64,000 nucleotides of DNA from NCBI RefSeq assembly GCF_019968905.1, contig NZ_CP079946.1, positions 5,601,356-5,665,355 of the forward strand, given 5' to 3'. Under the pieces are notes generated by a model that saw only the letters and a program-made list of their open reading frames with translations, was not told the DNA's origin and made no database searches. Shown piece after piece: positions 19,634 to 43,189 of this stretch. The stretch comes from Corallococcus sp. EGB. Its GTDB lineage: Bacteria > Myxococcota > Myxococcia > Myxococcales > Myxococcaceae. Every line of letters starts with the position of its first letter. Within the stretch, counting starts at the first letter, position 1. Made by a program: the position numbers and the translations under genes.

Positions 19634-19729
19634 GGGGAACGGTGCTCCGAACGAACGGGGACACGGGACTCCGCCATCCCTCGGGACGGGATGGACGGAG
19701 CGGAGGCGCTGCGACTGTGACTGCGGCTG

Positions 19730-20842: not shown

Positions 20843-20857
20843 GGCGGGTTGCGTCCC

Positions 20858-22768: not shown

Positions 22769-23017
22769 GGAAGACGAGGCCGGAGGCAGTCAGGGGAAGG
22801 AAGGGGAGCAGGTGTCCACACGCGCGGGCCCACACGACCCACCGTTCCCGACGCCGCCACCCTTCCGCCACGCGGAGAGGGTGAGGTCCGGGAAGGGTTG
22901 GGAGGAGAACACCTCATCGGTTCGAACTGACCACATTATGAGAGTCCGCGCAATTCGTGGACAGCAGATCACACCGGGGAAATCGCGCGGAGTGGTCGCG
23001 TGACTCAGGGCGTCGGA

Positions 23018-23944: not shown

Positions 23945-24030
23945 GGGTCTCCGGGGGAGGGAGCAGGCGCACGGTAAAGCTACAGGCCCAGGGGCCGCAA
24001 GAGGACCCAATGAATCACATTGGTTGCCCT

Positions 24031-24050
24031 CATGTATCACCTGATACATG
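24031..24050. promoter_or_regulatory. perfect palindrome (9-bp arms, 2-bp spacer), candidate operator in the menA/slt divergent region
   Basis: catgtatca-cc-tgatacatg, AT-rich in a 70% GC genome; a second inverted repeat ccaatg-aatca-cattgg lies at 24007..24023. It sits 87-106 bp upstream of the menA start and 470 bp upstream of slt. Confidence 0.35.
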
Positions 24051-28117: not shown

Positions 28118-29539
28118 ATGGCCTCGAAGATCAACGACAGCACGCGTCCCCTGACCTCCCTCTCGCGGCTGTCCTCGCAGGACGCCCGGGCGCCGGAGGC
28201 GAAGACCCGGAACCGCCCCCTCGCGTTCAAGGACGGCTTCGAGTCCTCCAGCACGCGTCCCGCCCCGGGTCAGCTGCCCCAGCTGCCCGCCCCGCCGCCA
28301 GTGCTGTCGCTGCCCGCGCCCTCCACGCCGACGCCCGCGCCGACGACGCCGGTGCCCCCGGAGACGCCCACCGAGCCGCCCGTGTCGGCGGACGCGGATC
28401 CGATGACGCACATCGAGTACCTGTCCTCGGACGCGATGCAGGGGCGTGACAGCCCCTCCGCGGGCCTGGACGCCGCTTCCGCCTACGTGCAGGCCCACGT
28501 CGAGAAGTACGGGCTCGTGGGGCCCAACTCCACCAACCCGGAGAACCCCTTCCAGCAGAAATTCAAGGTCTACTCCTGGCTGGGCGCGGAGAAGGCGGGC
28601 GAGGCGGCGGGCGCGGCCCATGGCCACGCCGGGCACAAGCAGTTCGGCCACAAGACGTTCCAGGAGGGCTTCTACCTGGACGAGAAGATGCCCAAGGACA
28701 CGCTGAAGCTGCTCAACCAGCAGTACGAGCAGACGATGAAGGCTGCGGGCCAGTCCGCGGCGCCGGCGCGCGCGGGCAAGCAGCGCAGCGTGGAGGAGCT
28801 GAAGCAGGTGGCCACCGCCACGGGCCAGGCGGTGAACACGATGGCGCTGCTGCCAGGCACGGGCCCGCACAAGGACGAGGTCATCGTGGTGATGGCCCAC
28901 CTGGACCACGTGGGCGTGGACCGCAAGGGCAACGCGTACAACGGCGCGGACGACAACGCGTCCGGCAGCGCGGTGCTGATGGCGGCGGTGCCGGAGCTGG
29001 CGGAGGCCGCGAAGAACGGCAAGCTGGACCGCTCCGTGCTCTTCCTCTGGACGGGCGCCGAGGAGAAGGGCCTGGTGGGCTCGCAGTACTTCGTGGACCA
29101 CCCCATCCCCGGGCTGGAGCTGAAGAACATCGCGGGCGTCATCAACACGGACATGGTGGGCCGCTGGGATGATCAGCGCCTGTCCGTGGTGGACACCAAC
29201 ACCAAGGGCCAGCCCAACTACTTCCGCGACGTGGTGGACCAGGCGAACCAGCAGCTGGCGGATCCGTTCGACCGCATCAACCGCGACATCAACGTCTACC
29301 GCGACCGGCAGGACGGTGCGTCCTTCGGGAGGAAGGGCGAGGACGTGCTCTTCCTCTTCGAGGGCCTGTCCAACCCCGAGGGCGGCGGCGACCTCATCCC
29401 CGAGTACCACCGGCAGGATGACGACATCGAGAAGATCATCGAGGACAACGGCGGCAACAAGCCGCGCCGCGTGAAGGACCTGCTCGTCAACGTCATCGGC
29501 ATCGCGGCGAACCGGACGGCGGAGACGCAGACCCGGTAG
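28118..29539 (+). CDS. M28-family zinc aminopeptidase with a Pro-rich N-terminal extension
   Basis: Zn-ligand motifs HLDHVG, GADDNASG and EEKGLVGS; start MASKINDSTRPL; about 100 aa of Pro/Thr-rich low-complexity sequence and no classical signal peptide. Confidence 0.7.
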   Translation: MASKINDSTRPLTSLSRLSSQDARAPEAKTRNRPLAFKDGFESSSTRPAPGQLPQLPAPPPVLSLPAPSTPTPAPTTPVPPETPTEPPVSADADPMTHIEYLSSDAMQGRDSPSAGLDAASAYVQAHVEKYGLVGPNSTNPENPFQQKFKVYSWLGAEKAGEAAGAAHGHAGHKQFGHKTFQEGFYLDEKMPKDTLKLLNQQYEQTMKAAGQSAAPARAGKQRSVEELKQVATATGQAVNTMALLPGTGPHKDEVIVVMAHLDHVGVDRKGNAYNGADDNASGSAVLMAAVPELAEAAKNGKLDRSVLFLWTGAEEKGLVGSQYFVDHPIPGLELKNIAGVINTDMVGRWDDQRLSVVDTNTKGQPNYFRDVVDQANQQLADPFDRINRDINVYRDRQDGASFGRKGEDVLFLFEGLSNPEGGGDLIPEYHRQDDDIEKIIEDNGGNKPRRVKDLLVNVIGIAANRTAETQTR

Positions 29540-29599
29540 CGCGGTGCCGCCCGCCGGATGCTGCACTTCCGGCGGGAGCTTCCTGGAGAGGTTGGACGC

Positions 29600-30484
29600 T
29601 CAGGCGGCCAGCTTCTCTCCGCCGCCGTCCACGGGCCCACCGGAGAGCGCGGCGACCTCGTGCTCGCTCAGCACGAGCTTCTCCTCGGAACCGCGCCAGA
29701 CGAACGGGATGCCGGGCTGCCGGTAGAGGTTCGCGGGGATGTCGCGCGCGAGCTGCGCGTGCAGCTCCGGCAGCTTGGACCAGTGCAGCCCGTGCCGCGT
29801 GTGATGCGCGGTGTGGTAGCCCAGGTTGCCCGTCATCAGGTTGTAGCCCTTGTGGAGGATGTTGTACGAGGCCTCCGAGTGGTTGGCCGTCTCCAGGCCC
29901 ACGTGGTGGAAGTACGTCGCCCAGGTCGTCACGTAGAGCGACGCCATCATGGGCAGGAGGAACACGAACAGCGCGTTGTAGGGGTTCACCCAGAACAGGC
30001 CCGCCAGCAGCACCAGCTGGAGCGCGGCCATCCCCACGAACGTGCGCAGCGCCTTGGGGTGGTGCTTCCTCCCCACCTGGAACGCGCGCGGATACGCCGT
30101 CAGCGCCGTGCCCAGCGAGTACTCCACCTCCCCCATCGTCGAGCCGTCATCCCGCTTCCAGCGCGACTCGTCCTGCGTCTGGTCCAGGTAGTTCTTGTGG
30201 TGGCCCAGCACGTGGTGGAGGAACCACGCCTGCGACGTCACGCCCGTCTGGAAACCGAAGACGATCTCCAACAGGCGGTTGGGCAGCGTGTGCTTGAAGA
30301 AGGACAGGTGCTGGTGGTGGTGGTTCCACGAGCAGATCCATCCCTTGGGGATGATGCCCAGCCCGAACCACAGCACCGGCACCCACCAGCTCCGGGCCAT
30401 GAGGAACACCGTCACATCGAGCGCGAACACGCCAAGGAACATCAGGACCGGGATGCGATCTTCAGGGTGCCGGAACAGGGTCAT
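29600..30484 (-). CDS. membrane fatty-acid desaturase/hydroxylase family protein
   Basis: His boxes NHHHQH, HHVLGHH and HTAHHTRH; 4 TM helices; start MTLFRHPEDRIPVLMF within ORF 29600..30592. Confidence 0.7.
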   Translation of the reverse strand: MTLFRHPEDRIPVLMFLGVFALDVTVFLMARSWWVPVLWFGLGIIPKGWICSWNHHHQHLSFFKHTLPNRLLEIVFGFQTGVTSQAWFLHHVLGHHKNYLDQTQDESRWKRDDGSTMGEVEYSLGTALTAYPRAFQVGRKHHPKALRTFVGMAALQLVLLAGLFWVNPYNALFVFLLPMMASLYVTTWATYFHHVGLETANHSEASYNILHKGYNLMTGNLGYHTAHHTRHGLHWSKLPELHAQLARDIPANLYRQPGIPFVWRGSEEKLVLSEHEVAALSGGPVDGGGEKLAA

Positions 30485-30705
30485 GCGCCTTCCGAGACAA
30501 GGGGAGCCAGGGCCAAAATGCCGCTTTTCCAACTGTAGGCCGCCTCCCCCCACCCCGAACAGCCCGCCCTCGCCCGCCTGCACGTTCCACACTGGCGGTA
30601 AACAACGTAGTCACGTTGAACTTGTATTTCCACAATTCCAAGAATGCCAGTCCTGCATTGTGATAAACGCCGACCCAGCCCTTTTGGACCCACCTGGAGG
30701 CAGCG

Positions 30706-31368
30706 ATGCGGAACCAGACCATCGAGGCGGCACTGGCGAAGAATCCCCACCGTGAGCAGCTGATCAAGCACCGGTTCTTCGAGGTCGTGGATGAGAAGGC
30801 CTTCAGCCGCGAACAGGCGGAGATGGTGCTGGGGCAGTGGTGGCACCCCCTGCACTACTTCCCCAACTTCCTGAGCAAGCTCATCGCCGTCTGCCCGCAG
30901 ATGGAGATGAAGACGGCGGTGACGCACATCCTCAACCAGGAGGTGGGCGAGGGAGACCCGGCGCGCGCGCACGAGCGCTTCTTCATCCAGACGATGACGG
31001 ACGCGGGCTTCACGAAGGCGGGCGTGTCGGAGGCGGACATGACGCCCGCGACGCGCCGGCTCATTGACGGCTATCAGCGCGCCACGGACAACCACCTCAC
31101 CGGCCTGGGCTTCCTCTACGGCACCGAGGTCGCGGACCTCACCATGGTGGCCAAGCTGGGCAAGCTGGTGCGCCGCACCACGGGCCTCAAGGCCCTGCCC
31201 TGGGTGGACATCCACGTGAAGCAGGAGCCGGACCACGTGGAGACCGCCGGCCACACGGTGGGCCTGCGGTACTCGGACGAGGAGCTGGCCACCATCACCC
31301 GCGGCGCCGAGGAGATGTGGCAGCTGTGGGTGGGCTTCTTCGAGGAGCTGCGCAACCGCGTCGTCTGA
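30706..31368 (+). CDS. heme-oxygenase-like fold protein (TenA/PqqC/CADD-like, putative di-iron redox enzyme)
   Basis: 220 aa, all-helical; ExxH-like carboxylate/His pairs (NQEVGEGD, AHERFF, HVKQEPDHVE); divergent from the desaturase at 29600..30484. Confidence 0.5.
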   Translation: MRNQTIEAALAKNPHREQLIKHRFFEVVDEKAFSREQAEMVLGQWWHPLHYFPNFLSKLIAVCPQMEMKTAVTHILNQEVGEGDPARAHERFFIQTMTDAGFTKAGVSEADMTPATRRLIDGYQRATDNHLTGLGFLYGTEVADLTMVAKLGKLVRRTTGLKALPWVDIHVKQEPDHVETAGHTVGLRYSDEELATITRGAEEMWQLWVGFFEELRNRVV

Positions 31369-31402
31369 GCGGCCGCCTGCGTCAAACGCAACTCCCCGGA
31401 AT

Positions 31403-31420
31403 CCGTACGTTTTCGTACGG
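31403..31420. terminator. hairpin ccgtacg-tttt-cgtacgg downstream of the HO-like gene
   Basis: Perfect 7-bp stem with a TTTT loop, 35 nt after the stop at 31368; no U-tract follows. Confidence 0.3.
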
Positions 31421-31449
31421 AACACTGGCGAATCTCTCCAGGTAGGGTA

Positions 31450-31476
31450 GTCACTCCCGCGTCACGGGAGTGTCAC
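31450..31476. promoter_or_regulatory. three GTCAC direct repeats at 11-bp periodicity (candidate Pho box), overlapping an 8-bp hairpin
   Basis: aGTCACtcccgcGTCACgggagtGTCACaccc: repeats start at 31450, 31461 and 31472, 65-90 bp upstream of the DUF47-pit operon. cactcccg/cgggagtg also form a stem at 31452..31472. Confidence 0.3.
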
Positions 31477-31540
31477 ACCCTGGCCCAATGGCCTCCCGCG
31501 GCGCACCGCGCCTGTCCCTCCAGGCGCCGAGGGAGATTCC

Positions 31541-32167
31541 ATGCTCGAAAAGCTGATGCCGAAGTCGGACGAGTTCTTCGACGACTTCGACGCGCAGTGC
31601 TCCAAGACCGTCGAGGGAGCCAAGCTCCTGCACGAGCTCCTGAGCGACTTCCGCGACGTGCCCGCGCGCGTCCAGGCCCTCAAGGACGTGGAGCACCGGG
31701 GCGACGAAGTCACCCACACGGCCTTCAACCGGCTCCACCAGCAGTTCATCACCCCGTTCGACCGGACGCAGATCCACACGCTCTTGTCGCGCATCGACGA
31801 CGTGCTGGACCTGACCAACGCGGCGGCGGCGCGCCTGCTGTATTACGAAATCGACTCCAGCCGGGCGGACGCGACGGAGCTGGCGCGGCTCCTGGTGCTG
31901 TCCACGCAGAAGGTGCAGGAGGTCGTGGCGGCGCTGCGGCTGATCAAGAAGCCGGAGCAGATCCTCGCGGGCTGCAAGGAGATCAAGCACCTGGAGACCC
32001 AGGCGGATGAGGTCCTGCGCGCGGGCATGGGCCGGCTGTTCAAGAGCGGCGTGGATACCCTGACCATCATCAAGTGGAAGGAGATCTACGATCTCATCGA
32101 GACGGCCACGGACAAGTGCCAGGGCGTGGCCAACGTCATCGAAGGCGTCGTGCTGGAGCACTCCTGA
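31541..32167 (+). CDS. DUF47 (PhoU-like, orfA/YkaA) family protein
   Basis: 208 aa, helical with PhoU-like repeats; stop TGA immediately followed by the pit ATG. Confidence 0.8.
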   Translation: MLEKLMPKSDEFFDDFDAQCSKTVEGAKLLHELLSDFRDVPARVQALKDVEHRGDEVTHTAFNRLHQQFITPFDRTQIHTLLSRIDDVLDLTNAAAARLLYYEIDSSRADATELARLLVLSTQKVQEVVAALRLIKKPEQILAGCKEIKHLETQADEVLRAGMGRLFKSGVDTLTIIKWKEIYDLIETATDKCQGVANVIEGVVLEHS

Positions 32168-33193
32168 ATGCTGCTCGCAGCGGTCGTCCTCATTGTCGTC
32201 GTCGCGCTCGTCTTCGATTTCATCAACGGCTTCCACGACGCGGCGAACTCCATCGCGACGGTGGTGTCCACGCGCGTGCTGTCGCCGAACCTGGCGGTGG
32301 CGTGGGCCGCGTTCTTCAACTTCGTGGCGGCCTTCGCGGGCGGCGTGCACGTGGCCAACACCATGGGCAAGGGCATCATCAACTTCGACATGCTCCGCGC
32401 GGCCGGCCCCACCGCGGTGCTGATGGTCGTCTTCTCGTCGCTGATGGGCGCCATCGCCTGGAACCTGCTCACCTGGTGGTGGGGGCTGCCCTCGTCGTCG
32501 TCGCACGCGCTGGCGGGCGGGATGATTGGCGCCACCCTGCCCGTCCTGGGCTTCCAGGGGCTGGTGGGGAGCGGCATCGCGCGCATCGCGGCCTTCATCG
32601 TGCTGTCGCCGCTCATCGGCATGACGCTGGGCATCGGGATGATGCTGGCCACCACCTGGGCGGTGCGCAAACAGACGCCGCTGCGCGTGGACACCTGGTT
32701 CCGCCGGCTGCAGCTGGTGTCGTCCGCCATCTTCTCCTTCAGCCACGGCACCAACGACGCGCAGAAGGTCATGGGCATCATCGCGGTGGTGCTCTTCGGC
32801 ACCATCTGGCGCGACCGGCCGTTCCACATCGACTGGTGGATGATCATCTCCTGCCACGCCGCGATTGGACTGGGCACCTTCTTCGGCGGCTGGCGTATCA
32901 TCCGCACCATGGGCCACAGCCTCACGAAGCTGGCGCCCATTGGCGGCTTCTGCGCGGAGACGGGCGGCGGCGTCACCATCATCGCGCTGGCGGAGCTGGG
33001 CATCCCCGTCTCCACCACGCACACCATCACCGGCGCCATCGTCGGCGTGGGCTCCACGCGCGGCTGGCGCGCCGTGAAGTGGGGCACCGCCGGCCGCATC
33101 ATCTGGGCGTGGGTGTTCACCATCCCCGCCGCCGCGCTGGTGTCCGTCATCGTCTACGGACTCACGCTGGCCGTGGTGCGGCTGGTGGGCTGA
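32168..33193 (+). CDS. pit: inorganic phosphate transporter, PiT family
   Basis: GFHDAANSIAT and GTNDAQKVMG signature motifs of the PHO4/PiT family; 10 TM helices. Confidence 0.85.
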   Translation: MLLAAVVLIVVVALVFDFINGFHDAANSIATVVSTRVLSPNLAVAWAAFFNFVAAFAGGVHVANTMGKGIINFDMLRAAGPTAVLMVVFSSLMGAIAWNLLTWWWGLPSSSSHALAGGMIGATLPVLGFQGLVGSGIARIAAFIVLSPLIGMTLGIGMMLATTWAVRKQTPLRVDTWFRRLQLVSSAIFSFSHGTNDAQKVMGIIAVVLFGTIWRDRPFHIDWWMIISCHAAIGLGTFFGGWRIIRTMGHSLTKLAPIGGFCAETGGGVTIIALAELGIPVSTTHTITGAIVGVGSTRGWRAVKWGTAGRIIWAWVFTIPAAALVSVIVYGLTLAVVRLVG

Positions 33194-33250
33194 AGAAGCC
33201 CTGGGGGTCCTGGCGCGGGGGACAGGCCCCCCGCGCCACCTGCTCCCCGA

Positions 33251-35038
33251 CTACTGCACGGCCCGGACGTTGAGCGCCGTGGACGGCCCGCCCACCGCCG
33301 GCGGCACCCAGGGCACCACCTTCTTGTTCTGCCACTGGACCAGCTTCAGCGACGGGTCCTCCAGCGGCACGTCGAAGGTGTAGGAGATGCGCGTGGGGCC
33401 CTGCGCGTCCGCCTCTTCAATCTTCACCACCATGCCCTGCATGTCGAAGGTATCGCCCTGGTGCACCGGGTGGCGCGCGGCGCGGTGGATGCGCTCCTCC
33501 ACGGAGTCCAGGAAGTGGCCGCCCTTGGTGAGCGCCAGCTCCAGCGAGTTGGGGCCGGTGCGCGTCACCTTCTGCTCGTGGAGCGAATAGGACAGCACCC
33601 ACCAGGCCTTCGGCAGCGTCAGGCCCGAGGACCACCACCGCACCGAGCCGTAGATGCCGATGATGCCGTTGGGGGCGTTGAGCACCACCACGCGCTGGTT
33701 GGGCAGCTTCTCCTGGTCAAAGGCCTCCTTGTAGCGCGCCTCCACGCGCCCCATGAGCGCGTCCGCCTGGGAGTACTGGTCCATGGTCTGCCACCAGATG
33801 TAGGGCGAGCCCACGACGTGGATGACCGCCATCACCGCCGCGCCGGCCAGCACCGCGCCCGCGCGGGGCTTGAGCGCCCGGCCCGTCCACGCGTGGCGCA
33901 GCACCACGGCCAGGGCCGCCGCCATGCCCAGGCTGGGCACGATGAGCGTGCGCGAGCCCGCGAAGGCGGAGTTGGACAGCCACGTGGACACGAACGCGCC
34001 CGTCAGCATCCACCCCACCGTGCGCCGCTCCGAGGCCTCCAGCCGGGGCCACACGCCCCACACGAGCAGCGCGAACAGCGTCAGGCCCACCGCGCCCAGG
34101 AGGGTGAACAGGGGCACCAGGGACTGGTCGAAGATGAAGTCCGGAGGCGCGTTCAGCGTCAGGCCCGCGATGGCGGCCGGGACGCGCCCGAGCATCGCCT
34201 GGAACCACGCCACGGGCGTCCCCAGGGCGTCCAGGTACATGTCCGAGCCGCCCGCGCCGTAGCCCATGGCCCGGTAGGCCACGAAGTAGATGGCCATCAG
34301 CACGCCAAAGGGGAGGAGCCCCCTGAGCTTGTCCTTCGCCGCCCCCGGCCCGGAGAAGAACTCGTAGGCCAGCACGTACGGGCTGAGGATGACCATGGTC
34401 TCGCCGCACAGGAGCGCGAGCGCGAAGGACACGAGCGCCCCCACCAGCGCGTTCCTGCGCCCCTGCTCCCGCCACTGGATGTGGAAGAAGAGGCCGAGGA
34501 CGCCGAACATCAACGACATCACCACGCTGCGGTAGGACAGCCAGCCCAGCACCGCCGCGTGCGAGCCCCAGATGGCGAAGAGGAACATCGCCACGCCCGC
34601 CACCGCCGTGGGCAGCACGCGCTTGAGCAGCACGCCCGCCAGCGCCACCAGCCCCACGTACCAGAGCACCGAGTGGAGCTGATAGGCCACCGCGACGCGG
34701 TTGTAGAGCAGGTGATCCAGTCCGTAGAGCAGGCTGCCCAGGGGCCGGAAGAACGAGACGCGGACCGTGGGCTCCACCCACCACGGGAAGACGCCCACGT
34801 GCGCCAGCTTCAGCGTGTGCTCCGGGATGCCGGTGGCGGTGCGGTAGACGTCCAGCGGCGTGTTGCCCAGCGGCGCGGGCGGCGGAATGTGGTCCCAGAC
34901 ACCCAGCCAGATGAAGTCATCCGGCATGAAACCCGAGCGCAACGCCAACGCGCCCAGCGCCACCGCGAACACGATGGAAATCCAGAAGTAACGTTTAAAC
35001 GGCCAACCCGGGGTGGCTGGCGGAGGAGAGGTATCCAT
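33251..35038 (-). CDS. large polytopic membrane protein, possible GT-C-type glycosyl/lipid transferase
   Basis: 595 aa; about 12 TM helices followed by a roughly 150-aa soluble C-terminal domain; N-terminal DD motif region (MPDDFIWLGVWDH). Confidence 0.55.
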   Translation of the reverse strand: MDTSPPPATPGWPFKRYFWISIVFAVALGALALRSGFMPDDFIWLGVWDHIPPPAPLGNTPLDVYRTATGIPEHTLKLAHVGVFPWWVEPTVRVSFFRPLGSLLYGLDHLLYNRVAVAYQLHSVLWYVGLVALAGVLLKRVLPTAVAGVAMFLFAIWGSHAAVLGWLSYRSVVMSLMFGVLGLFFHIQWREQGRRNALVGALVSFALALLCGETMVILSPYVLAYEFFSGPGAAKDKLRGLLPFGVLMAIYFVAYRAMGYGAGGSDMYLDALGTPVAWFQAMLGRVPAAIAGLTLNAPPDFIFDQSLVPLFTLLGAVGLTLFALLVWGVWPRLEASERRTVGWMLTGAFVSTWLSNSAFAGSRTLIVPSLGMAAALAVVLRHAWTGRALKPRAGAVLAGAAVMAVIHVVGSPYIWWQTMDQYSQADALMGRVEARYKEAFDQEKLPNQRVVVLNAPNGIIGIYGSVRWWSSGLTLPKAWWVLSYSLHEQKVTRTGPNSLELALTKGGHFLDSVEERIHRAARHPVHQGDTFDMQGMVVKIEEADAQGPTRISYTFDVPLEDPSLKLVQWQNKKVVPWVPPAVGGPSTALNVRAVQ

Positions 35039-35259
35039 GTTTCAAAGATCTATCAGCAGGCCCCCCACACGAGATAGGTCCCCCCAGGTCGTCCGCTGAC
35101 ACCGGAAGCACGCGGGGTGCGGCGCGCGCGACGGAGATCCTTTGCCACCGCCCGGACTCCGGGTGATCCTCGGCGGACGAAGGGGGACGCGGCCCGGCAG
35201 GTGAAAACAAGAATGCGCGCGCATGGCCTTTCATCCGCGCCGTTTCCGGGCCCGCACGC

Positions 35260-36675
35260 ATGCGCATCGCCATCATCGCCACGTACACCCATCCGACCCG
35301 CCTGCGGATCAAGGAACCCTCCATCATGCAGTCCTCCGTGCCGGAGCTCATCGCGGGCCTGTGTCCGGAGCACGCGGAGGTGGAGATCTTCAACGAGAAG
35401 GAGGCGGACCTCCCGCTGGACCGGCACTGGGACCTGGTCTTCTTCTCGTACCTGCACTCGTATTACGAGCACACCAAGGTGCTCTCCACCCTCTTCCGTC
35501 AGCGCGGCATGACGACGGTGGCGGGCGGCCGGCACGCGAGCCACTTCCCCGATGACGCGGCGAAGTACTTCGACGCGGTCATCACCGGGGAGCCGGAGTC
35601 CAACGTGCCCGCGCTCATCGCGGACTTCGAGAAGGGGGAGCTCAAGCCCCGCTACAGCCTTCCCTCGCAGGGCGCCGCGGCCATCAAGCCGTACCGCTAC
35701 GAGCTCATCGACTTCACGCACAACAAGGTGCGCCTGCCGGGCATCGAGGCGTCGCGCGGCTGCCCCTTCACGTGCAACTTCTGCGTGCTCACCGGCCACG
35801 AGCGCTACCGCTTCCGGCCCATCCCGGAGGTCATCGATGAAATCCAGACGCGCATGCGCTGGAACCCGAACTTCCTGGGGCTGATGGGAGACGCGTTCGT
35901 CTTCCTGGACAACAACCTGGGCGGTTCTCCCAAGTACCTGCGCGCGCTGTGCGAAGCGTTGATCCCCCTGAAGAAGACCTGGGGCTGCGCCCTCACCTTC
36001 AACGTGCTGAAGGACGAGTCGCTGGTGAAGCTGATGGCGAAGGCGGGCTGCCGCTACGTCTACACCGGCCTGGAGTCGCTCAACCCGGACTCGCTCAAGG
36101 CGATGAACAAGGGGCAGAACAAGCTGTCGGAGGTGGACGCCGTCATCCGCCGCGTCTTCTCCGCCGGCATCCTCCTGTCCTTCGGGCTCATCGTCGGCTC
36201 GGACGGCGACACCAACGAATACCTGCACCGGCTGCCGGACTACCTGGCGGACCTGAAGTACTTCTCCGTCACGTTCCTGGGCATCGTGTGCCCCTACCCG
36301 GAGACGCCCTTCTTCCGCGAGCTGAAGGCGGAGGACCGGCTGCTGCCCGGCACCACCAGCCGCGACTACGACGGCTACACGCTGTGCCACCGGCCCAAGA
36401 ACCTGCACGCATCCGAGGTGGTGGAGCACTTCCAGCGGCTGTGCCGCACGCTGGGGAGCCTGCCCAACATCGCCCGGCACTACGCGTCCAAGCTGATGAT
36501 GAGCGACCTGCCCCGCTACAAGACGACCATCCTCTTCTCCGGGCCCGAAATCGTCAGCATCCGCAACCCGGTGAAGAACCCGGCGCGCCGCTACATCGCC
36601 GGGTTGGATGCCCTTGAAGCCTGGGACGCGGAGCGGATGCCCGCGCTGGGGCTCACGCCGCAGGTCCTGACCTGA
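35260..36675 (+). CDS. B12-binding domain radical SAM protein (class B)
   Basis: N-terminal Rossmann-like B12-binding domain, then SRGCPFTCNFC (CxxxCxxC) radical SAM cluster motif; 471 aa; 3' end overlaps the convergent desaturase by 23 bp. Confidence 0.8.
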   Translation: MRIAIIATYTHPTRLRIKEPSIMQSSVPELIAGLCPEHAEVEIFNEKEADLPLDRHWDLVFFSYLHSYYEHTKVLSTLFRQRGMTTVAGGRHASHFPDDAAKYFDAVITGEPESNVPALIADFEKGELKPRYSLPSQGAAAIKPYRYELIDFTHNKVRLPGIEASRGCPFTCNFCVLTGHERYRFRPIPEVIDEIQTRMRWNPNFLGLMGDAFVFLDNNLGGSPKYLRALCEALIPLKKTWGCALTFNVLKDESLVKLMAKAGCRYVYTGLESLNPDSLKAMNKGQNKLSEVDAVIRRVFSAGILLSFGLIVGSDGDTNEYLHRLPDYLADLKYFSVTFLGIVCPYPETPFFRELKAEDRLLPGTTSRDYDGYTLCHRPKNLHASEVVEHFQRLCRTLGSLPNIARHYASKLMMSDLPRYKTTILFSGPEIVSIRNPVKNPARRYIAGLDALEAWDAERMPALGLTPQVLT

Positions 36676-37483
36676 GCCGGGATGGCAGGCGCACGTCCCA
36701 CGCCAGCCCCAGGACCTGGAGCGCGCGGATGAAGAGCCAGCCCGGGTCCCACTGCCACCACACCCACCCGTGCCGCGCGGACGCGGGGAAGGCGTGGTGG
36801 TTGTTGTGCCAGCCCTCGCCCAATGCGAGCACGCTCACCCACCACACGTTGCGGCTGTGGTCGCGCGTGTCGTGGGCGCGCTGACCGAACGCCGCGTGGC
36901 ACACGGAGTTCACCGCGTAGGTGCTCTGCATCCAGCACACCACCGGGAGGAAGAAGTACGCGGGCACCGCGCGCCAGCCGAACGTCAGCCCCACGAAGAG
37001 CACCGCCAGCACCTGCGGCGCGATGCGGTAGCGCAGGAGCCAGTGGTAGTAGCGATCATGGGCCATGTCGCGGCACCAGGTGCGCCAGCCGTCCTCCTCC
37101 GTGGAGGCCTCGTTGAGGATCCACCCCATGTGCGCGTACCAGAAGCCGTGCACCGGCGAGTGCACGTCCCCTTCCGCGTCCGCATTCGCGTGGTGCAGCC
37201 GGTGGTTGGCGGCCCACAGCAGCGGGCTGCCCTGGGCGGTGAGCATGGCCACCGTGACCAGCGCGTACTCCACCCAGCGGGGGCACGCGAAGGCGCGGTG
37301 GCACAGCAGCCGGTGCAGCCCCACCGTCGTGCCCAGGCCAATGGACACGTACACGGCCAGCGCCACCGGCAGCGCGTACGGCGGCCAGGGCAGGAAGAAC
37401 GCGAGCGCGGCCAGCCCGTGGACCACGACCATGTAACCGACGATGACGGGACTGAGCTGGAAGCGGAGCGGCGCGGTGTTCAT
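36653..37483 (-). CDS. acyl-CoA/acyl-lipid delta-9-type desaturase (stearoyl-CoA desaturase family)
   Basis: His boxes HRLLCH, HRLHH and HNNHH with 4 TM helices; start MNTAPLRF within ORF 36653..37543. Confidence 0.8.
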   Translation of the reverse strand: MNTAPLRFQLSPVIVGYMVVVHGLAALAFFLPWPPYALPVALAVYVSIGLGTTVGLHRLLCHRAFACPRWVEYALVTVAMLTAQGSPLLWAANHRLHHANADAEGDVHSPVHGFWYAHMGWILNEASTEEDGWRTWCRDMAHDRYYHWLLRYRIAPQVLAVLFVGLTFGWRAVPAYFFLPVVCWMQSTYAVNSVCHAAFGQRAHDTRDHSRNVWWVSVLALGEGWHNNHHAFPASARHGWVWWQWDPGWLFIRALQVLGLAWDVRLPSRLRSGPAA

Positions 37484-37567: not shown

Positions 37568-40500
37568 TCACATCACGCGCGCGTCACGGGCCGGGGGCGG
37601 CGCGAACGCCGGGCTGGGTGGGGCCCGCAGGGTGGACTCGAAGCGGTCCATGCGCCGCAGCTCCGCGCGGGCCTCCACCTCCGTGAAGATGGCGCGCGCA
37701 CGGGCGAGGAAGGCCTCGCGCCGGTGCGGCAGGGCCACCGCCGCGTCGAAGTAGGCCACGCCCGTCTCCCAGCGGTTGGGGCTCCTCTCCAGGACGGCGA
37801 TGGCCTCCAGGAACACCGGCTCCGCGGCCTTCGGCCCCTTGCGCAGCGCCAGCGAGCGCGCCGTCACGCGCAGCGCCGGGCCCTTCAGGTACGGGTAGAG
37901 CCGGGCGATGAGGCGCGCCTTGATGCAGGACAGCCGGACGATCCTCGACAGCTTCCTGCGCGGCACCACCGTGGCGCCCTCCTCCAGCGCGAAGAGGGCC
38001 GCCTCCGCCGCGTCCACCAGCCCCACCTGGAGGAAGGGCACCATCACCTGGTAGCTCCAGATGCTCTTGAAGCAGCGCACCGCGACGAGCGCCGCCTCCT
38101 CCACCTGGTGCTCGCGCACCGTGACGTTGGCCAGGTGGTTGAGGCTGGCGCACTGGTTGGCCAGGTCCGCCACCTCCACGCTGATGCGCAGGCCCTGCTC
38201 CAGCTCCGCGCACAGTTCGCCCACGTCCCCTTCGCCCAGCAGGTAGCGGCACATGGGCGCCCACGAGTGCGCCCAGCCCTGGTGCATCAGCGCGTTGAGC
38301 TCCTCGCCAATGGCGCCCATCTGCTCGTAGAGCGCGACGGCGGCGCGGAAGCGCGAGTGGAGGAACTCGCCCGTGGCCTGCATCATCAGGGACGTCTGGC
38401 GCTCCCAGCGCTCGCCCACCTGGCGCAGCGTGGAGACGGCCTCCTCCTGGAACTCCCGCGCGCGCTGCAGCTCGTTGGCGAAGAAGGCCTGGATGCCCAG
38501 GCGGCTGAGCGCGAGCCCCTCCGCCACCGGGTCCTTGGAGCGCCGCGCGTACTCCAGCGCCTTCTCACAGTGGTAGCGCGCGCGCTTGAGCAGGCCCGCG
38601 CCGAACAGCAGCGTGCCGTAGTAGCCGCGCGCCAGGCTGATGGCGTAGTCGTTGCGCGAGCGCTCCGCCATGTTGGTGGACACCAGCGTCGCCCAGGTGA
38701 GCTTGGTGATGTCCGCGAAGTAGTAGATGCGGATGAGCGAGTTGAGCGTGGACAGCTGCTGCAGGTAGTTGCCCAGCCGCGCCGCCGGCAGCGGCCGCAG
38801 GATGAACGGCAGCAGCGACGCGAGCCCCCGCAGCAGCAGGTTCGCCAGCGTGCGCAGCCCCAGCGCGGGCAGGCTCCCCGGAAGGCTGCGCCCCCGCAGC
38901 ACCAGCGACTTCTCCAGGTGCTGCGTGGCGAGCGCGGACTCGCCCTTCTCCTGGTGCGCGCGGCCCAGCCCCAGGTGCAGCTCCGCCTGGCGCTGGACCT
39001 CCTCCTCGTCCACCAGGCACTGCTCGAACATCAGGATGGCGTTGGCGTAGTGGCCCGCCTGCAGCAGCGTCTCCGCCAGCTCCTGCATCACCCGGCGCGT
39101 CTGCAGCAGCGTCACCTCCGGGTCCACCGGGACGACGGTGCCCAGGAGCTCCAGGCCGCGGTTGTAGTGGTAGAGCGCGTCATCGTTCGCGTACTGCGCC
39201 CGCGCGCTGCGGGCCGCCATCAGCGTGTACTCCAGGCCCTTGTCCTCCACGTTGCCCGCGAGGAAGTGGAACGCGAGCAGCCCCGCGGAGCCCGCGAGGT
39301 TGTCGCTGGCGCGGACCTCCAGGTAGCGCGCGAGCCGGCGGTGCAGGTCCTCGCGCGCCGACACCAGCAGCGTGTTGTAGGCCACGTCGCGGATGACGAT
39401 GTGCTTGAAGAGGCAGGTGTACGGCTCCTCCGTCTCCAGGAGGATGAGGCCCAGGCGCTGGAGCGTGTCCATGGCCTCGCGCAGGACGCGGTGGCCCAGG
39501 GTGGGCACCAGCGCCGCCACGCCATCCAGCGTGAAGATGCGCCCGATGACGGACGCCACCTTCACCACCAGCTTCTCCGTCTCGCTGAGCAGGTCGATGC
39601 GCGACAGCACCACGTCCTGGATGGAGTCCGGGAGGAGGAGGTCCTGCAGGCCCCGCTTCAGCTCCATCCGCGAGGCGCCGGGCTCCACCGGCCCCAGGTA
39701 GCCCTGCTCCGCCAGCCCCTCCACGATGGATTCGATGAAGAACGGGTTGCCCTGCACCTTCGCGAGCAGCCGGTCCTCCAGCGCCACGTCCGGCGGCGAC
39801 AGGCGCAGGTGCACGCGCAAGAGCGCCCGCGTGTCCGCGTCGTCCAGGCTCACCAGGTCCACCGGACGGAACTCCGGCAGCTCGCGCAGGCCCTTGAGCT
39901 GCTCTCCCGGGCGCATCGTCGCCAGCACCATGATGCGGTGCGAGCCCACGCGCCCCGCCACGTACTGCAGCAGGTCCAGGGAGATGTAGTCCGCCCAGTG
40001 CAGGTCCTCGAAGAAGAGCAGCACCGGCTGCGAGCGGCTGAGCTTCTCCAGCAGCTGGAAGACGATCTGGAACACCTTCTGCTGCCTGCGCCGCGCGTCC
40101 ATCCGCGCCGTGGTGGACGTCTCCTCCAGGGACATGCCGAGGATGCCCGCGACCACGGGGATCCACTCCGGCCCCACGTCCTCCAGCCCGTCCAGCCCCT
40201 GGCGCAGGCGCGTCAGCTGCGCCTCGGTGTCATCCGAGTCGAGCAGCCCGAACGCCTGGAGGAGCACCTCCTTCCAGGGGAAGAACGGGGTGAAGGCCTC
40301 GTAGGAGTAGCAGACGCCGTACAGCGCCCGCGCGCCGCCCTCCTCCGCGTCCTCCAGCACGCGCGCGCCCAGGCGCGACTTGCCGATGCCCGCCTCTCCG
40401 GACACCATGCACACGCGGCCCTGGCCCGCGAAGGCCGCGTCGAGCGACTCGCGCAGCATGTCGAGCTCGCGGCCACGGCCGATGATGTCACCCCGGCCCT

Positions 40501-41860
40501 TGATGAAGAGGCTGCGGCGCGTCTCGCCCGAGAGCCGGTACACCGGCACCGAGCGCGAGACGCCCTTCAGCTTCGCGTCCTCCACGAACTCGGTGGCGAA
40601 GCCGCCCTGCTGTGATCTCGCCTGGGTGTGGGAGCACAGGTGCACGCCGCCCTGGCGTCCGCCGTGCGTCATCAGGCGCGCGGCGATGTTCACCACCTCG
40701 CCCAGCGCCGAGTACCCCTTGCGCGTGGGCGAGCCCATGTCCCCGCAGTAGGCGTGGCCGGTGGCGATGCCGATCTGCAGCTCATCCAGGAAGGGGAACT
40801 GCTCGCGGGCCTTGAGCAGCTTGCAGGCCAGCCGGCACGCCAGCACCTCCTTGTTCTGCTGGGCGGTGGGCGCGCCGAAGAGGACGTAGAGCACGTTGCC
40901 CTTGTCCGTGAAGTCCGTCATCAGCAGCACGCCGCCGTGGTGGGCGCTCTCGCGCTGGACGTATTCGTAATAGGCGTTGAGGTCGCGGGTGAAGGCGTCC
41001 GGATCCGCGTCCGCCCGCGCGTGCGTGAAGCGCACGAAGAAGCAGGTGACGTCGCGGAAGTCGCCCGCGAACTCCTGGTGCGCGGTGGTGATCTTCGTGA
41101 AGAGCACCGGGTGCAGGAGCAGCGCGCACCGGCCCACCAACTCCGCTCCGCCCGTGGGCGCGGGCAGCGGGCGCCTCACCGACTCCAGCCGCGCGTCCGC
41201 CGCCAGCCGGTGGTTGCCGCCCTCGCGGGGCTCGCCCCTGCGCACGGCCTCCGGCAGGGCCGCCCAGGCGCGGGGGCTCAGCACGACCTCCGACACGGCG
41301 GCCTGCTTCTCCGCGGCCACCGCCTGCGCCAGCGGCTCGCCCACGAGCGCCGGGTGCATCCACAGGCCGGTGGCGCCCATCACGATGCGCGTGGCCTCAC
41401 CGAACCCGATGCCGATGCGCGACGACACGCCGAAGCGCTGCCCCAACAGCTCCAGCCGGGCGAAGCGCGCGAGCCTGCGCTGCACGTGCAGCGCGCACAC
41501 CGCCGCGCGCTGCACCACGTCCGCGTCCGCCTCCTCGGGCTCGGCCTCGAAGCACGCGAGGATGGAGTCGCCGGCGAACTGGTAGATGTCCCCGCCGTGG
41601 TCTCGGACCACGTCGATCATCTCCGTGTAGTAGTTCGTCAGCAGGCGCTGGAGCGCGTCGATGCCGCGTGGCCCCGCGCCGCTCAGCCCCACCACGATGG
41701 GCGTGAAGCCCGCGATGTCCAGGAGCAGGATGGCGCCCCGCACGCCTTCGGTCCGAGGCAGCGCGTCCGCCTCGTGGCGCTGGAGCCGCGCGAGGATGGC
41801 CGCCGGCATGTAGGGCGCCAGCATCGCGACGGCGGGATCGATGGGCTGCGGGGAGGACAT
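37568..41860 (-). CDS. adenylate/guanylate cyclase domain protein with a central AAA/NB-ARC-like ATPase and C-terminal TPR array
   Basis: Two class-III cyclase-like domains (ILLLDIAGFT...; FFVRFTHARA...GDMGSPTR), Walker A GEAGIGKS, a long TPR/helical C-terminus; about 1430 aa. Confidence 0.8.
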   Translation of the reverse strand: MSSPQPIDPAVAMLAPYMPAAILARLQRHEADALPRTEGVRGAILLLDIAGFTPIVVGLSGAGPRGIDALQRLLTNYYTEMIDVVRDHGGDIYQFAGDSILACFEAEPEEADADVVQRAAVCALHVQRRLARFARLELLGQRFGVSSRIGIGFGEATRIVMGATGLWMHPALVGEPLAQAVAAEKQAAVSEVVLSPRAWAALPEAVRRGEPREGGNHRLAADARLESVRRPLPAPTGGAELVGRCALLLHPVLFTKITTAHQEFAGDFRDVTCFFVRFTHARADADPDAFTRDLNAYYEYVQRESAHHGGVLLMTDFTDKGNVLYVLFGAPTAQQNKEVLACRLACKLLKAREQFPFLDELQIGIATGHAYCGDMGSPTRKGYSALGEVVNIAARLMTHGGRQGGVHLCSHTQARSQQGGFATEFVEDAKLKGVSRSVPVYRLSGETRRSLFIKGRGDIIGRGRELDMLRESLDAAFAGQGRVCMVSGEAGIGKSRLGARVLEDAEEGGARALYGVCYSYEAFTPFFPWKEVLLQAFGLLDSDDTEAQLTRLRQGLDGLEDVGPEWIPVVAGILGMSLEETSTTARMDARRRQQKVFQIVFQLLEKLSRSQPVLLFFEDLHWADYISLDLLQYVAGRVGSHRIMVLATMRPGEQLKGLRELPEFRPVDLVSLDDADTRALLRVHLRLSPPDVALEDRLLAKVQGNPFFIESIVEGLAEQGYLGPVEPGASRMELKRGLQDLLLPDSIQDVVLSRIDLLSETEKLVVKVASVIGRIFTLDGVAALVPTLGHRVLREAMDTLQRLGLILLETEEPYTCLFKHIVIRDVAYNTLLVSAREDLHRRLARYLEVRASDNLAGSAGLLAFHFLAGNVEDKGLEYTLMAARSARAQYANDDALYHYNRGLELLGTVVPVDPEVTLLQTRRVMQELAETLLQAGHYANAILMFEQCLVDEEEVQRQAELHLGLGRAHQEKGESALATQHLEKSLVLRGRSLPGSLPALGLRTLANLLLRGLASLLPFILRPLPAARLGNYLQQLSTLNSLIRIYYFADITKLTWATLVSTNMAERSRNDYAISLARGYYGTLLFGAGLLKRARYHCEKALEYARRSKDPVAEGLALSRLGIQAFFANELQRAREFQEEAVSTLRQVGERWERQTSLMMQATGEFLHSRFRAAVALYEQMGAIGEELNALMHQGWAHSWAPMCRYLLGEGDVGELCAELEQGLRISVEVADLANQCASLNHLANVTVREHQVEEAALVAVRCFKSIWSYQVMVPFLQVGLVDAAEAALFALEEGATVVPRRKLSRIVRLSCIKARLIARLYPYLKGPALRVTARSLALRKGPKAAEPVFLEAIAVLERSPNRWETGVAYFDAAVALPHRREAFLARARAIFTEVEARAELRRMDRFESTLRAPPSPAFAPPPARDARVM

Positions 41861-41877
41861 CCTCGGGGGCTTTCCGC

Positions 41878-42279
41878 TCAGGCCAGGTTGGCGTAGCGCA
41901 GGTAGAGGGCGCCCAGGCACATGACGCCGTAGAGGGGGATCTCCGCCGTCTCCAGCCAGGGCTGCTGCTTCATCACCGCGCCCCAGATGTGCACCGCCGT
42001 CATGATGCCGCCAATGAGGCCGATGAGCTCGAAGATGACCAGGTGGCTCTTGGGGTCCGGGATGAACTGCACCACCGCGATGATGACGGACAGCGCCAGG
42101 CCGCCCAGGCAGCGCGCGAAGTAGACCGTCAGGTCATTGTTGCCCGTGGGCAGCTCCCACCCGAACCACCGCGCCCAGCGCAGCGGCATGAACATCAGCG
42201 GCAGCGCGTAGACGACCAGGAAGACCGAGGTGGAGACCGCGAGGAACCAGCTGGCCAGCGGATAGTCGGGGTTGATCAT
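41878..42279 (-). CDS. small membrane protein (about 133 aa, 4 TM)
   Basis: Sense-like C-terminal part of ORF 41878..42534 from MINPDYPLASWFLAVSTSVFLVVYALPLMF...; 17 bp upstream of the cyclase gene start. Confidence 0.45.
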   Translation of the reverse strand: MINPDYPLASWFLAVSTSVFLVVYALPLMFMPLRWARWFGWELPTGNNDLTVYFARCLGGLALSVIIAVVQFIPDPKSHLVIFELIGLIGGIMTAVHIWGAVMKQQPWLETAEIPLYGVMCLGALYLRYANLA

Positions 42280-42415
42280 GATGGCGGACGTGGCTGGGGC
42301 CGGGTGTGCTCCCCGCCGGGCGCGGCCCAACCCCACGCCGTCCATCCTAGAATCTTTTCCGACCCCGTGGGGTGCCTTCCCCCCTCCCCACCCGCGCCTC
42401 CAGCCCGCCCGCCGC

Positions 42416-42946
42416 CTAGCGCGTGGCGGCGAGGAGGAACTCGGCCACCCGCTCCAGGGAGGTGGTGCGCTCGGCCTCGGCCGGGAAGCGCCGGAACACC
42501 TCCGGTGGCCCGTGCAGGATGAGCGGCTTGCCATAGCGCAGCGCCAGGACGGCCTCCGCGACGGTGCCGGCCCCTCCGGGCAGCGCCACCAGCGCGTGCG
42601 GCGTCAGCACGTTGATGTGGTTGCGGCTCATGGGGTCCGTGCCCTGCTCCCCGCTGAGCGGCAGGTGCGTGTAGATGGGGATCTCGATGTCCGTGTTCGG
42701 GTAGCCGGGCCGGGGCTGGTAGCGGCCGTCCGCCCCCACGGTGCCGGGGATGATGCCGATGGCCGCCCCCCGCCGTCCCTCCACCTGCACGAAGGCCCCC
42801 GCCGCGGCGCTCATGACGCCGCCGCCCGCGCCGGTGAGCAGGTCGAAGCCGGCCTCGGCGATCCACCGCGCCAGGGGAACGACCCACTCCTCGTGTGTCG
42901 CCCTGCCGGAGCCGAACACTCCGATGATGCGGCGGTGTCTGCGCAT
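42416..42946 (-). CDS. LOG/TIGR00725 family Rossmann-fold protein (lysine-decarboxylase-like)
   Basis: GVFGSGR...GGGVM...PGGAGT motifs typical of TIGR00725/LOG proteins; 176 aa. Confidence 0.65.
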   Translation of the reverse strand: MRRHRRIIGVFGSGRATHEEWVVPLARWIAEAGFDLLTGAGGGVMSAAAGAFVQVEGRRGAAIGIIPGTVGADGRYQPRPGYPNTDIEIPIYTHLPLSGEQGTDPMSRNHINVLTPHALVALPGGAGTVAEAVLALRYGKPLILHGPPEVFRRFPAEAERTTSLERVAEFLLAATR

Positions 42947-43189
42947 GACTGCGTCCTCCACGAAAGACCGGAACTACGTGTGCCCCTGTTCCATGCGAAT
43001 GCCCGGCCAACGCGGCAAGGGATCACGAACCTCCGGGCGTCCCCGCTCCCGTCCACCCGTGGAAGGTGCGTGACGCGAGCGTCACCTGACCGTCGCTTCC
43101 CTCCGCCCGGGGCGCCAGACGCGGGCTGCACGACCCGTGATGTCGGACCCCTCCTCTACCTTCGGCACAACCAAGCGAGGAGGCCGCCC

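Follow-up and report, generated by a model that had tools for sequence, protein, structure and literature searches.

A conserved radical SAM and desaturase gene pair within a genus-specific gene mosaic of Corallococcus sp. EGB

We analysed a 64,000-nucleotide stretch of the genome of the myxobacterium Corallococcus sp. EGB (contig NZ_CP079946.1, positions 5,601,356 to 5,665,355; hereafter the window, to which all window coordinates refer) and, within it, the 8 kb that encode a membrane di-iron enzyme of the FA_desaturase family (des1), a heme-oxygenase-like (HO-like) di-iron protein, a PhoU_div-Pit pair, a 595-aa polytopic membrane protein (mem595), a radical S-adenosylmethionine (SAM) protein and an SCD-type desaturase (des2). 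A preliminary description of this DNA had read these genes as one lipid-tailoring island. We instead favour, with a probability of roughly 0.7, a mosaic that contains a single conserved lipid-modifying module, which consists of the radical SAM gene and des2 and is flanked by the gene of a STAND cyclase. Very probably, five or more independent units stand side by side in the 8-kb stretch, an arrangement specific to Corallococcus, and only the radical SAM gene and des2 are linked to each other. The units are des1, an orphan HO-like oxidase whose kin serve nonribosomal peptide synthetases (NRPSs), the PhoU_div-Pit pair, a Myxococcaceae-specific GT-C protein (mem595) and the radical SAM-des2 module. 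The most likely, though putative, function of this module is a regulated modification of acyl chains.

Synteny of the stretch and the radical SAM-des2 pair

To follow the genes across genomes, 84 loci around the radical SAM gene were assembled, four by exact homologue look-ups and 80 by scanning a single genome for each species, and were searched by tblastn with 17 window proteins. In 36 of the 84 loci, which represent both Myxococcota and Acidobacteriota, a des2 orthologue was located no more than approximately 6 kb from the radical SAM gene. Four arrangements occur: the two genes converge and overlap in Corallococcus and Citreicoccus; des2 precedes the radical SAM gene in tandem by 66-90 bp in Archangium and Hyalangium; it is the first gene of the order des2, FA_hydroxylase, radical SAM in Pyrinomonadaceae; and it is encoded on the opposite strand, approximately 5.5 kb upstream, in two metagenome-assembled genomes (MAGs) of Myxococcales. 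By chance, a given orthologue would lie within 10 kb in approximately 0.2% of 9-Mb genomes. The des2 orthologues of the paired loci show 57-96% identity (one locus, L070, has only a 42% relative), and the identities of the radical SAM protein and des2 co-vary with a Spearman coefficient of 0.94, for which shared phylogeny accounts in part.

A second kind of membrane di-iron enzyme accompanies the radical SAM gene in Acidobacteriota, where a gene of the FA_hydroxylase family (210-230 aa) was found directly upstream of it in 25 loci. In one Pyrinomonadaceae locus (L001), the hydroxylase gene (9321-10004) and the radical SAM gene (10001-11524) overlap by four bases, an arrangement that indicates translational coupling. 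Taken together, des2 and/or FA_hydroxylase adjoin the radical SAM gene in 49 of the 84 loci. The conservation of the radical SAM-des2 pair across two phyla is compatible with a radical SAM protein that is directed at lipids. As further observations on locus L001, the des2 orthologue is situated further upstream of the hydroxylase gene, and a sigma-70 region-4-like gene follows downstream. An FA_hydroxylase partner within the 64-kb window itself was considered and rejected; a tblastn search of the window with the hydroxylase of L001 gave no match.

In the window, the radical SAM gene and des2 converge and their 3′ ends overlap by 23 bp, with stop codons at 36673-36675 (plus strand) and 36653-36655 (minus strand), in agreement with the preliminary description, which had also named the SCD type correctly. 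The des2 protein matches Pfam FA_desaturase with an E-value of 8e-17 and aligns to mouse SCD1 (4ymk) over residues 21-268 with an E-value of 1.3e-25. Its translation contains the three His boxes HRLLCHR, HRLHH and HNNHH (HX4H, HX2HH and HX2HH) and the motif NSVCH (NSxxH), all of which are shared with SCD1 and the bacterial desaturases of the DesA-DesC types. It differs from these enzymes in its conserved adjacency to a radical SAM gene and in its score against the DesA-family equivalog of NCBIfam, which at 90.1 bits lies below the cut-off of 400 and marks des2 as related but not as an equivalog.

The other genes of the stretch behaved differently in the same search. Six genes, M28, des1, HO, phoU, pit and mem595, adjoin the radical SAM gene only in 11 of the 84 loci, all of the Corallococcus group; they were not detected beside it in Myxococcus, Pyxidicoccus, Citreicoccus, Archangium, Hyalangium or Stigmatella, nor in the other Myxococcales MAGs or any Acidobacteriota locus. 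The order M28, des1, HO, phoU, pit, mem595, radical SAM, des2 is retained in 8 of the 11 Corallococcus-group loci. The HO gene is missing without a remnant from three of the 11 (L012, L013 and L061), all of which keep des1, and mem595 is missing without a remnant from one (L012). What is left of the lipid island is therefore the radical SAM-des2 pair, conserved across Myxococcota and Acidobacteriota, whereas the remaining genes are syntenic only within Corallococcus. Outside this genus, none of des1, the HO-like gene, phoU-pit and the GT-C gene is found beside the radical SAM gene. The reading of the stretch as a single pathway thus fails the synteny test that the preliminary description had set; wider synteny is lacking for four of its five proposed enzymes, counted here as des1, the HO-like protein, phoU-pit and the GT-C protein.

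We accordingly regard it as highly improbable that des1, the HO-like protein, the GT-C protein, the radical SAM protein and des2 together with Pit make up a Corallococcus-specific, phosphate-responsive pathway to an unusual membrane lipid or signal. Such a pathway would fit the shared gene order within the group and the presence of three FA_desaturase genes (Pfam) within 64 kb. It is contradicted by the alternating strands of the block from des1 to radical SAM-des2, which comprises five or more transcription units, by the variable presence of HO and mem595 within the genus and by the lack of synteny beyond it. In addition, the kin of the HO-like protein are linked to NRPS genes, orthologues of des1 and mem595 occur in unrelated contexts, and GT-C enzymes act by moving sugars from polyprenyl-phosphate donors rather than by modifying acyl chains. 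The suggested phosphate-responsive lipid remodelling through Pit was not borne out either: no result ties Pit to lipids, and its gene stands beside the radical SAM gene only in Corallococcus.

The radical SAM family and its signalling neighbours

Homologues of the radical SAM protein are found in Myxococcota and Acidobacteriota at 72-99% identity to the window protein, with 72-75% between Corallococcus and Pyrinomonadaceae or Bryobacteraceae; the locus is 99% identical to that of Corallococcus coralloides KYC2213. Identity is 91-99% among the Corallococcus-group loci and plateaus at approximately 70-73% between any two deep groups. The gene is universal in Myxococcaceae, abundant in Pyrinomonadaceae and was seen once in Bryobacteraceae. 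A library clustered at 50% identity (1.84 billion representatives) contained one full-length representative of the family (60% identity) together with fragments, and the next relatives among such representatives show 41, 39 and 34% identity. Judged by these identities, the family is a tight orphan orthogroup with an extremely high, near-housekeeping level of conservation. The protein had previously been called divergent, which is correct relative to the named families but not within its own, exceptionally conserved family. The exact sequence of the window protein was not on record in the look-up, its nearest paralogues carry only generic labels such as 'radical SAM protein', and our literature searches for a radical SAM and desaturase system in Myxococcus or Acidobacteria returned no description of the family or the pair.

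Two loci of the sample carry unexpected taxon names. A contig titled 'Comamonas sp. KCTC 72670' (L023, BNCN01000007.1) contains a Myxococcus-type radical SAM-STAND locus with 86% identity and an identical gene order, and a MAG titled 'Enterobacteriaceae' (L068, CAYHHL010000068.1) contains the arrangement Pkinase-STAND-radical SAM. Both are probably mislabelled in their taxonomy or derived from contaminated assemblies.

Pfam assigns the protein to Radical_SAM with 58.2 bits against a cut-off of 29.5 (E 1.5e-15), and the CX3CX2C motif (C168/C172/C175) is invariant even in paralogues of 27-41% identity. All 22 NCBIfam matches fell far below their cut-offs, among them those to the ladderane type TIGR04072 (68 bits versus 360), BchE (65.3 versus 481), HpnJ (65.2 versus 577.6), HpnR (37.9 versus 650) and PhpK, and HpnP gave no NCBIfam match. 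The protein is thus neither BchE nor a known maturase, either of which would have spoken against the preliminary description. An auxiliary Fe-S cluster was considered and rejected: because C264 is the only invariant cysteine besides the CX3CX2C motif once the paralogues of 27-41% identity are added, no such cluster is indicated.

The best match in PDB sequence searches was AprD4 (6fd2; E 1.7e-11, 17% identity), followed by MgmA, TsrM, OxsB and CysS. An AlphaFold model, built with 15 close homologues, likewise had AprD4 as its top fold match (E 1.2e-12, TM 0.58), again followed by the B12 enzymes MgmA, TsrM, OxsB and CysS. Residues 1-140 of this model, in which strands and helices alternate, mostly reach a block-mean predicted local distance difference test (pLDDT) score of 72-96, with only 53-57 for residues 11-30. 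At this model quality, the fold matches support only a general class-B-like architecture. AprD4, a radical SAM 1,2-diol dehydratase, shares a Rossmann-like N-terminal domain with our protein but acts on an aminoglycoside, and the radical SAM locus has no aminoglycoside context.

Among B12-type radical SAM enzymes, members that methylate, cyclise or desaturate lipids at unactivated carbons are known, including the hopanoid methylases HpnP and HpnR, the archaeal glycerol dialkyl glycerol tetraether (GDGT) ring synthase Grs, the methylases Gmm and Cgm and the archaeal tetraether desaturase Ted, for which desaturation was shown (bioRxiv 10.1101/2025.10.20.683597). The likeness of the window protein to HpnP/HpnR, Grs, Gmm/Cgm and Ted lies in the layout of an N-terminal Rossmann domain and a CX3CX2C barrel and in the genomic association with lipid enzymes. 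It differs from HpnP, HpnR, HpnJ and the ladderane type in that it has no family-level match to them, forms an orthogroup of its own and binds cobalamin only putatively; an O2-dependent di-iron desaturase as a partner has not been described for HpnP/HpnR, Grs, Gmm/Cgm or Ted. A role as an HpnP/HpnR-like class-B methylase is possible, and non-methylating chemistry such as desaturation or C-C coupling is equally conceivable.

Membrane-spanning lipids offer another conceivable product. Homologues of mss are lacking from the Acidobacteria (subdivisions 1, 3, 4 and 6) that produce iso-diabolic acid, and these would therefore need another enzyme (PMC13159169). That the radical SAM protein is this missing aerobic enzyme, coupling iso-C15 tails to iso-diabolic acid or adding extra methylations to branched GDGTs, is scarcely credible to us. 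The known tail-coupling enzymes are radical SAM proteins, and the family is well represented in Pyrinomonadaceae, which belong to acidobacterial subdivision 4, with the single occurrence in Bryobacteraceae. Nevertheless, the protein is universal, at approximately 73% identity, in Myxococcaceae, which are not known to produce membrane-spanning lipids; the homologues listed include no Acidobacteriaceae (subdivision 1), and the link to an O2-dependent desaturase would be left unexplained.

Regulatory genes are a further constant of the radical SAM loci, and a homologue of the STAND/TPR regulator adjoins the radical SAM gene in 44 of the 84 loci. In the window, the STAND cyclase gene is located directly upstream of des2 on the same strand, and it stands beside the radical SAM gene throughout Myxococcaceae. 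The regulator is of the type cyclase-AAA_16-TPR in Myxococcaceae and of the type Pkinase-AAA_16-TPR in other Myxococcales. A Pkinase-AAA_16-TPR gene precedes the radical SAM gene in L078, L068 and L071 and, on the same strand with a gap of 93 bases, in L003; in the latter, a cNMP-binding/Rce1-like gene also adjoins the radical SAM gene. The STAND gene is absent from the Acidobacteria loci in which FA_hydroxylase is coupled to the radical SAM gene. In the window, the genes for a SLOG-family protein (LDcluster4), a small membrane protein (homologues of approximately 133-145 aa) and the STAND cyclase form a conserved trio (37568-42961) that adjoins the radical SAM gene across Myxococcaceae. The SLOG family is linked to nucleotide signalling, and the trio has the appearance of a unit for nucleotide signalling. 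Radical SAM paralogues of 34-41% identity have comparable company: in a Blastocatellia locus (L172, 1856-7590) an FA_desaturase-fusion gene and a Pkinase-TPR gene precede the paralogue, and on a metagenome contig (L171, 5099-9443) it lies between an RR-GerE gene, of the DesR family, and an overlapping hybrid histidine kinase gene.

From these neighbours arises the main rival to a lipid-modifying pair, namely that the radical SAM protein modifies a protein, a small molecule or a nucleotide signal on behalf of the STAND cyclase, Ser/Thr kinase and two-component proteins and that its adjacency to a desaturase is secondary. We consider this unlikely. STAND/TPR regulators are the commonest neighbours of the gene, the Pkinase, cNMP-binding, SLOG and histidine kinase contexts point in the same direction, and the near-housekeeping conservation could reflect a protein partner. 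The 49 loci with des2 and/or FA_hydroxylase nevertheless argue for an association with lipid enzymes, as do the Acidobacteria in which the coupling occurs without a STAND gene and the recurrence of an FA_desaturase gene in the context of a radical SAM paralogue; regulators that are encoded near enzymes are also more simply explained as the regulators of those enzymes.

The remaining genes of the window

Genes were called by third-position GC content (GC3) in the window, which has a GC content of approximately 70%, and domains were assigned by Pfam and NCBIfam profile scans of the window proteins. GC3 supported exactly the open reading frames (ORFs) that had been named before, and the family assignments (FA_desaturase for both des1 and des2, Haem_oxygenas_2, PhoU_div, PHO4 and Radical_SAM) held in the profile searches. 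The features discussed here are listed in Table 1.

Table 1. Genes of the window and, in the last row, loci of relatives of the HO-like protein (own locus coordinates).
Feature	Position	Strand	Basis or remark
des1, FA_desaturase-family membrane di-iron enzyme	29600-30484	-	GC3, Pfam; longer GTG ORF to 30592
HO-like di-iron protein	30706-31368	+	GC3, Pfam Haem_oxygenas_2 (PF14518)
PhoU_div (DUF47)	31541-32167	+	GC3, Pfam
Pit (PHO4)	32168-33193	+	GC3, Pfam
mem595, 595-aa polytopic GT-C-fold membrane protein	33251-35038	-	GC3, AlphaFold and Foldseek
Radical SAM protein, 471 aa, N-terminal Rossmann domain	35260-36675	+	GC3, Pfam Radical_SAM
des2, SCD-type desaturase	36653-37483	-	GC3, Pfam FA_desaturase; alternative TTG start 37543
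STAND regulator, adenylate/guanylate cyclase + AAA_16 + TPR, 1450 aa	37568-41920	-	Pfam
Small membrane protein	within 41878-42534	-	
SLOG/LDcluster4 protein	42416-42961	-	
Tandem paralogous DUF4140/DUF4139 proteins, 744 and 554 aa	4365-8158	+	longest ORFs overlap by ~100 bp
Third FA_desaturase-family protein, 416 aa	13978-15228	-	
MaoC-like dehydratase	15225-16160	-	
Cytochrome c	18377-19633	-	
636-aa protein	20858-22768	-	weak MtrC/MtrF-like match
UbiA-family prenyltransferase	23018-24049	-	
HO-like relatives (50-79% identity)	L085/L086 6001-6714; L087 8001-8663; L088 6001-6696; L173/L174 6001-6711		NRPS-adjacent

The HO-like protein matches PF14518 with 97.5 bits against a cut-off of 28.9 (E 1e-27). 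Its six di-iron ligands E79, H89, E141, H170, E174 and H177 are intact and invariant in 13 homologues down to 50% identity, which answers the question of metal ligands that had been raised for this protein. Its best PDB match, to BesC (7twa), is weak (E 8.6e-4), those to CADD and the para-aminobenzoate (pABA) synthase have E-values of approximately 0.6, and with 45.7 bits the protein does not reach the cut-off of 200 for the CADD subfamily TIGR04305. A TenA thiaminase II, which would have spoken against the preliminary description, was rejected; the protein has no match to TENA_THI-4 (PF03070), and its only cysteine, C63, lies outside the conserved columns. On the strength of its profile match and ligands, the protein is a genuine, very distant heme-oxygenase-like di-iron oxidase. 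It shares PF14518 and the set of three His and three carboxylate ligands with BesC, UndA, CADD/pABA synthase and SznF but lies very far from all characterised members (E 8.6e-4 at best).

The distribution of the HO-like protein is patchy and comprises a few Corallococcus, Pyxidicoccus caerfyrddinensis (79% identity) and then relatives of 50-59% identity that, where named, belong to Thermoanaerobaculia or Polarisedimenticolia. In all four independent contexts outside Corallococcus, the relatives are encoded beside giant NRPS genes, whose products comprise 2,100-6,300 aa and of which the three largest start with matches to AMP-binding and PF23024 (AMP-dom_DIP2-like). One relative is separated by 9 bases from a downstream NRPS gene, whose 6092-aa product has AMP-binding and PF23024 as its first domain matches, and an Abhydrolase_2 esterase gene is found near the NRPS-linked relatives. 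In the Pyxidicoccus and Thermoanaerobaculia contexts, the sole nearby desaturase gene is a paralogue of 25% identity. The 64-kb window yielded no NRPS gene: its Pfam-scanned genes contained no NRPS domain, and no GC3-supported ORF exceeded 1450 aa. The window copy seems to be an orphan member of an NRPS-associated clade and not a lipid enzyme, and in Thermoanaerobaculia and Pyxidicoccus the clade is a candidate precursor-tailoring enzyme for lipopeptides. The clade provides a lead for natural-product precursor chemistry.

These contexts also bear on the proposal that the HO-like protein and the divergently encoded des1 carry out an UndA- or BesC-like step on a fatty acid, by which an olefin is formed or a C-C bond is cleaved. 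The two genes are separated by 221 bp (measured from the ATG start of des1), and the intact ligands together with BesC as the best PDB match would suit such a step. We nevertheless judge it most improbable: the pair exists only in some Corallococcus genomes, the three loci mentioned above have des1 without HO, and elsewhere the HO-like relatives stand beside NRPS genes with merely a distant desaturase paralogue nearby. BesC acts on an amino acid, and such a substrate would be better suited to the supply of NRPS precursors than to fatty-acid chemistry.

des1 itself matches FA_desaturase with an E-value of 6e-29, contains the boxes HHHQH, HHVLGHH and HTAHH and received no NCBIfam or PDB assignment. 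Homologues of 43-78% identity were found in 80 metagenome loci with GC contents of 34-73%, none of which had an island gene or a conserved neighbour near des1; when the neighbours were clustered, no family occurred in more than 7 of the 80 loci, except for frame shadows of des1. A conserved des1-HO pair was rejected on the basis of the loci that keep des1 without HO and of the absence of HO near the metagenome homologues. des1 is a stand-alone enzyme outside the conserved module. PhoU_div (Pfam E 2e-22) and Pit (PHO4, E 3e-94) are an ordinary phosphate-transport pair, the genes of which abut (stop at 32167, start at 32168).

For mem595, no Pfam or NCBIfam match was obtained at an E-value of 0.01 and no named GT-C family (PMT_2, ArnT, STT3 and others) was recognized. 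Its AlphaFold (AF2) model has a pLDDT of 91.6, and the top 25 matches of this model in a Foldseek search of the PDB were all GT-C (probability 0.97-1.0), including AglB, STT3, ArnT, AftB, PglB, DPY19 and Pmt4, which substantiates the GT-C likeness noted before. Of the residues in the first extracytoplasmic loop, D39 does not vary among 29 homologues, and D40 is conserved in at least 90% of them. The predicted fold and this acidic DD motif are shared with ArnT, STT3/AglB/PglB, AftB and PMT; however, the TM-scores are only approximately 0.4, and the C-terminal beta-rich domain of mem595 is unrelated to theirs. All named proteins among the 46 homologues found belong to Myxococcaceae, and the gene evolves fast (63-90% identity among the Corallococcus-group loci, where the radical SAM protein keeps its 91-99%); its orthologues in Citreicoccus and Archangium minus lie in unrelated gene contexts. 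As far as the predicted structure indicates, mem595 is a Myxococcaceae-specific GT-C glycosyltransferase-like protein outside the conserved module.

The GC content decreases to 0.635-0.67 over window positions 29500-36500, compared with 0.70-0.76 in the flanks, and this dip falls on the genus-specific block and the radical SAM gene. Because a repeat search returned only short repeats at chance level and no mobile-element boundaries were found around the dip, the lower GC content of 30-36.5 kb cannot be traced to an insertion. A scan for promoters and terminators gave no more sites than shuffled sequence.

Some genes of the window lie apart from the stretch discussed here. The third FA_desaturase-family gene overlaps by 4 bp with an upstream MaoC-like dehydratase gene, and the two (13978-16160) are probably another lipid pair that is unrelated to the des1-des2 stretch. 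Tandem paralogous DUF4140/DUF4139 genes were also noted, as was a stretch of the minus strand (18377-24049) that contains genes for cytochrome c, a 636-aa protein and a UbiA-family prenyltransferase.

Weight and meaning of the proposed lipid-modifying module

According to the mechanism that we propose for the radical SAM-des2 module, the SCD-type di-iron enzyme des2 would use O2 on an acyl chain, and the 5′-deoxyadenosyl radical of the radical SAM protein would abstract hydrogen from an unactivated carbon of the same lipid. With cobalamin bound to the Rossmann domain, the outcome would be methylation; without it, dehydrogenation or the formation of a C-C bond. In Pyrinomonadaceae, the translationally coupled FA_hydroxylase-type di-iron enzyme may add a third step, and the adjacent STAND, kinase and two-component sensors would set expression or activity in a manner resembling DesK/DesR. 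In Bacillus subtilis, the desaturase is controlled by DesK/DesR, and the resemblance consists of a membrane desaturase gene beside a dedicated sensor or regulator; the regulators at the radical SAM loci are instead STAND cyclases or Ser/Thr kinases with TPR, and the conserved element is the radical SAM gene.

Several observations weigh against this reading. The lipid role of the radical SAM family is putative and derives from its gene neighbourhood, in which signalling proteins are commoner than des2 (44 versus 36 loci). des2 or FA_hydroxylase was found beside the radical SAM gene in none of 12 loci of Myxococcus, Pyxidicoccus and relatives (L014-L016, L018-L025 and L041), and many MAG loci show unrelated neighbours; the radical SAM-des2 pairing is frequent but not obligatory. 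Within Corallococcus, the conservation of the whole block in eight loci makes a genus-specific link among the left-hand genes possible. As for the chemistry, the earlier class-B assignment stands with respect to the CX3CX2C motif and the Radical_SAM domain. For the Rossmann-like N-terminus, a role in binding B12 is putative; PF02310 scored 19.1 bits against a Pfam threshold of 32.1. AprD4, the best match in both sequence and fold, does not bind cobalamin (PMC12931638). The AlphaFold model is poor overall (pLDDT 63) with a weak radical SAM core, and an Rfam scan of 27-43 kb with E-values up to 1 gave no match and hence no riboswitch, of the cobalamin or any other type, ahead of the radical SAM gene. 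Cobalamin binding is doubtful, and B12-dependent methylation as the reaction is unlikely; for a membrane-lipid acyl chain as the substrate of the radical SAM protein, we put the odds slightly below even.

Most genes of the five-gene lipid island are unrelated neighbours, and the island as proposed is therefore a poor target for lipidomics. A compact target is instead provided by a radical SAM protein that is approximately 70% identical between two phyla and whose gene recurs beside those of membrane di-iron lipid enzymes and sensory regulators. We tentatively suggest, as a prospect with the odds against it, that in aerobic Myxococcota and Acidobacteriota the family modifies the acyl chains of membrane lipids by a radical reaction not described before, be it methyl branching, O2-independent desaturation or tail-to-tail coupling, together with a desaturase and an FA-hydroxylase and under the control of sensors. 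Radical SAM chemistry on bacterial acyl lipids has been little explored so far. If tail-to-tail coupling were the reaction, the radical SAM protein would be the missing iso-diabolic-acid synthase of Acidobacteria. Radical SAM chemistry on such lipids bears on membrane tuning in soil bacteria that are rich in iso-branched and ether lipids and on the enzymology of the membrane-spanning lipids of Acidobacteria, which serve as palaeoclimate proxies.

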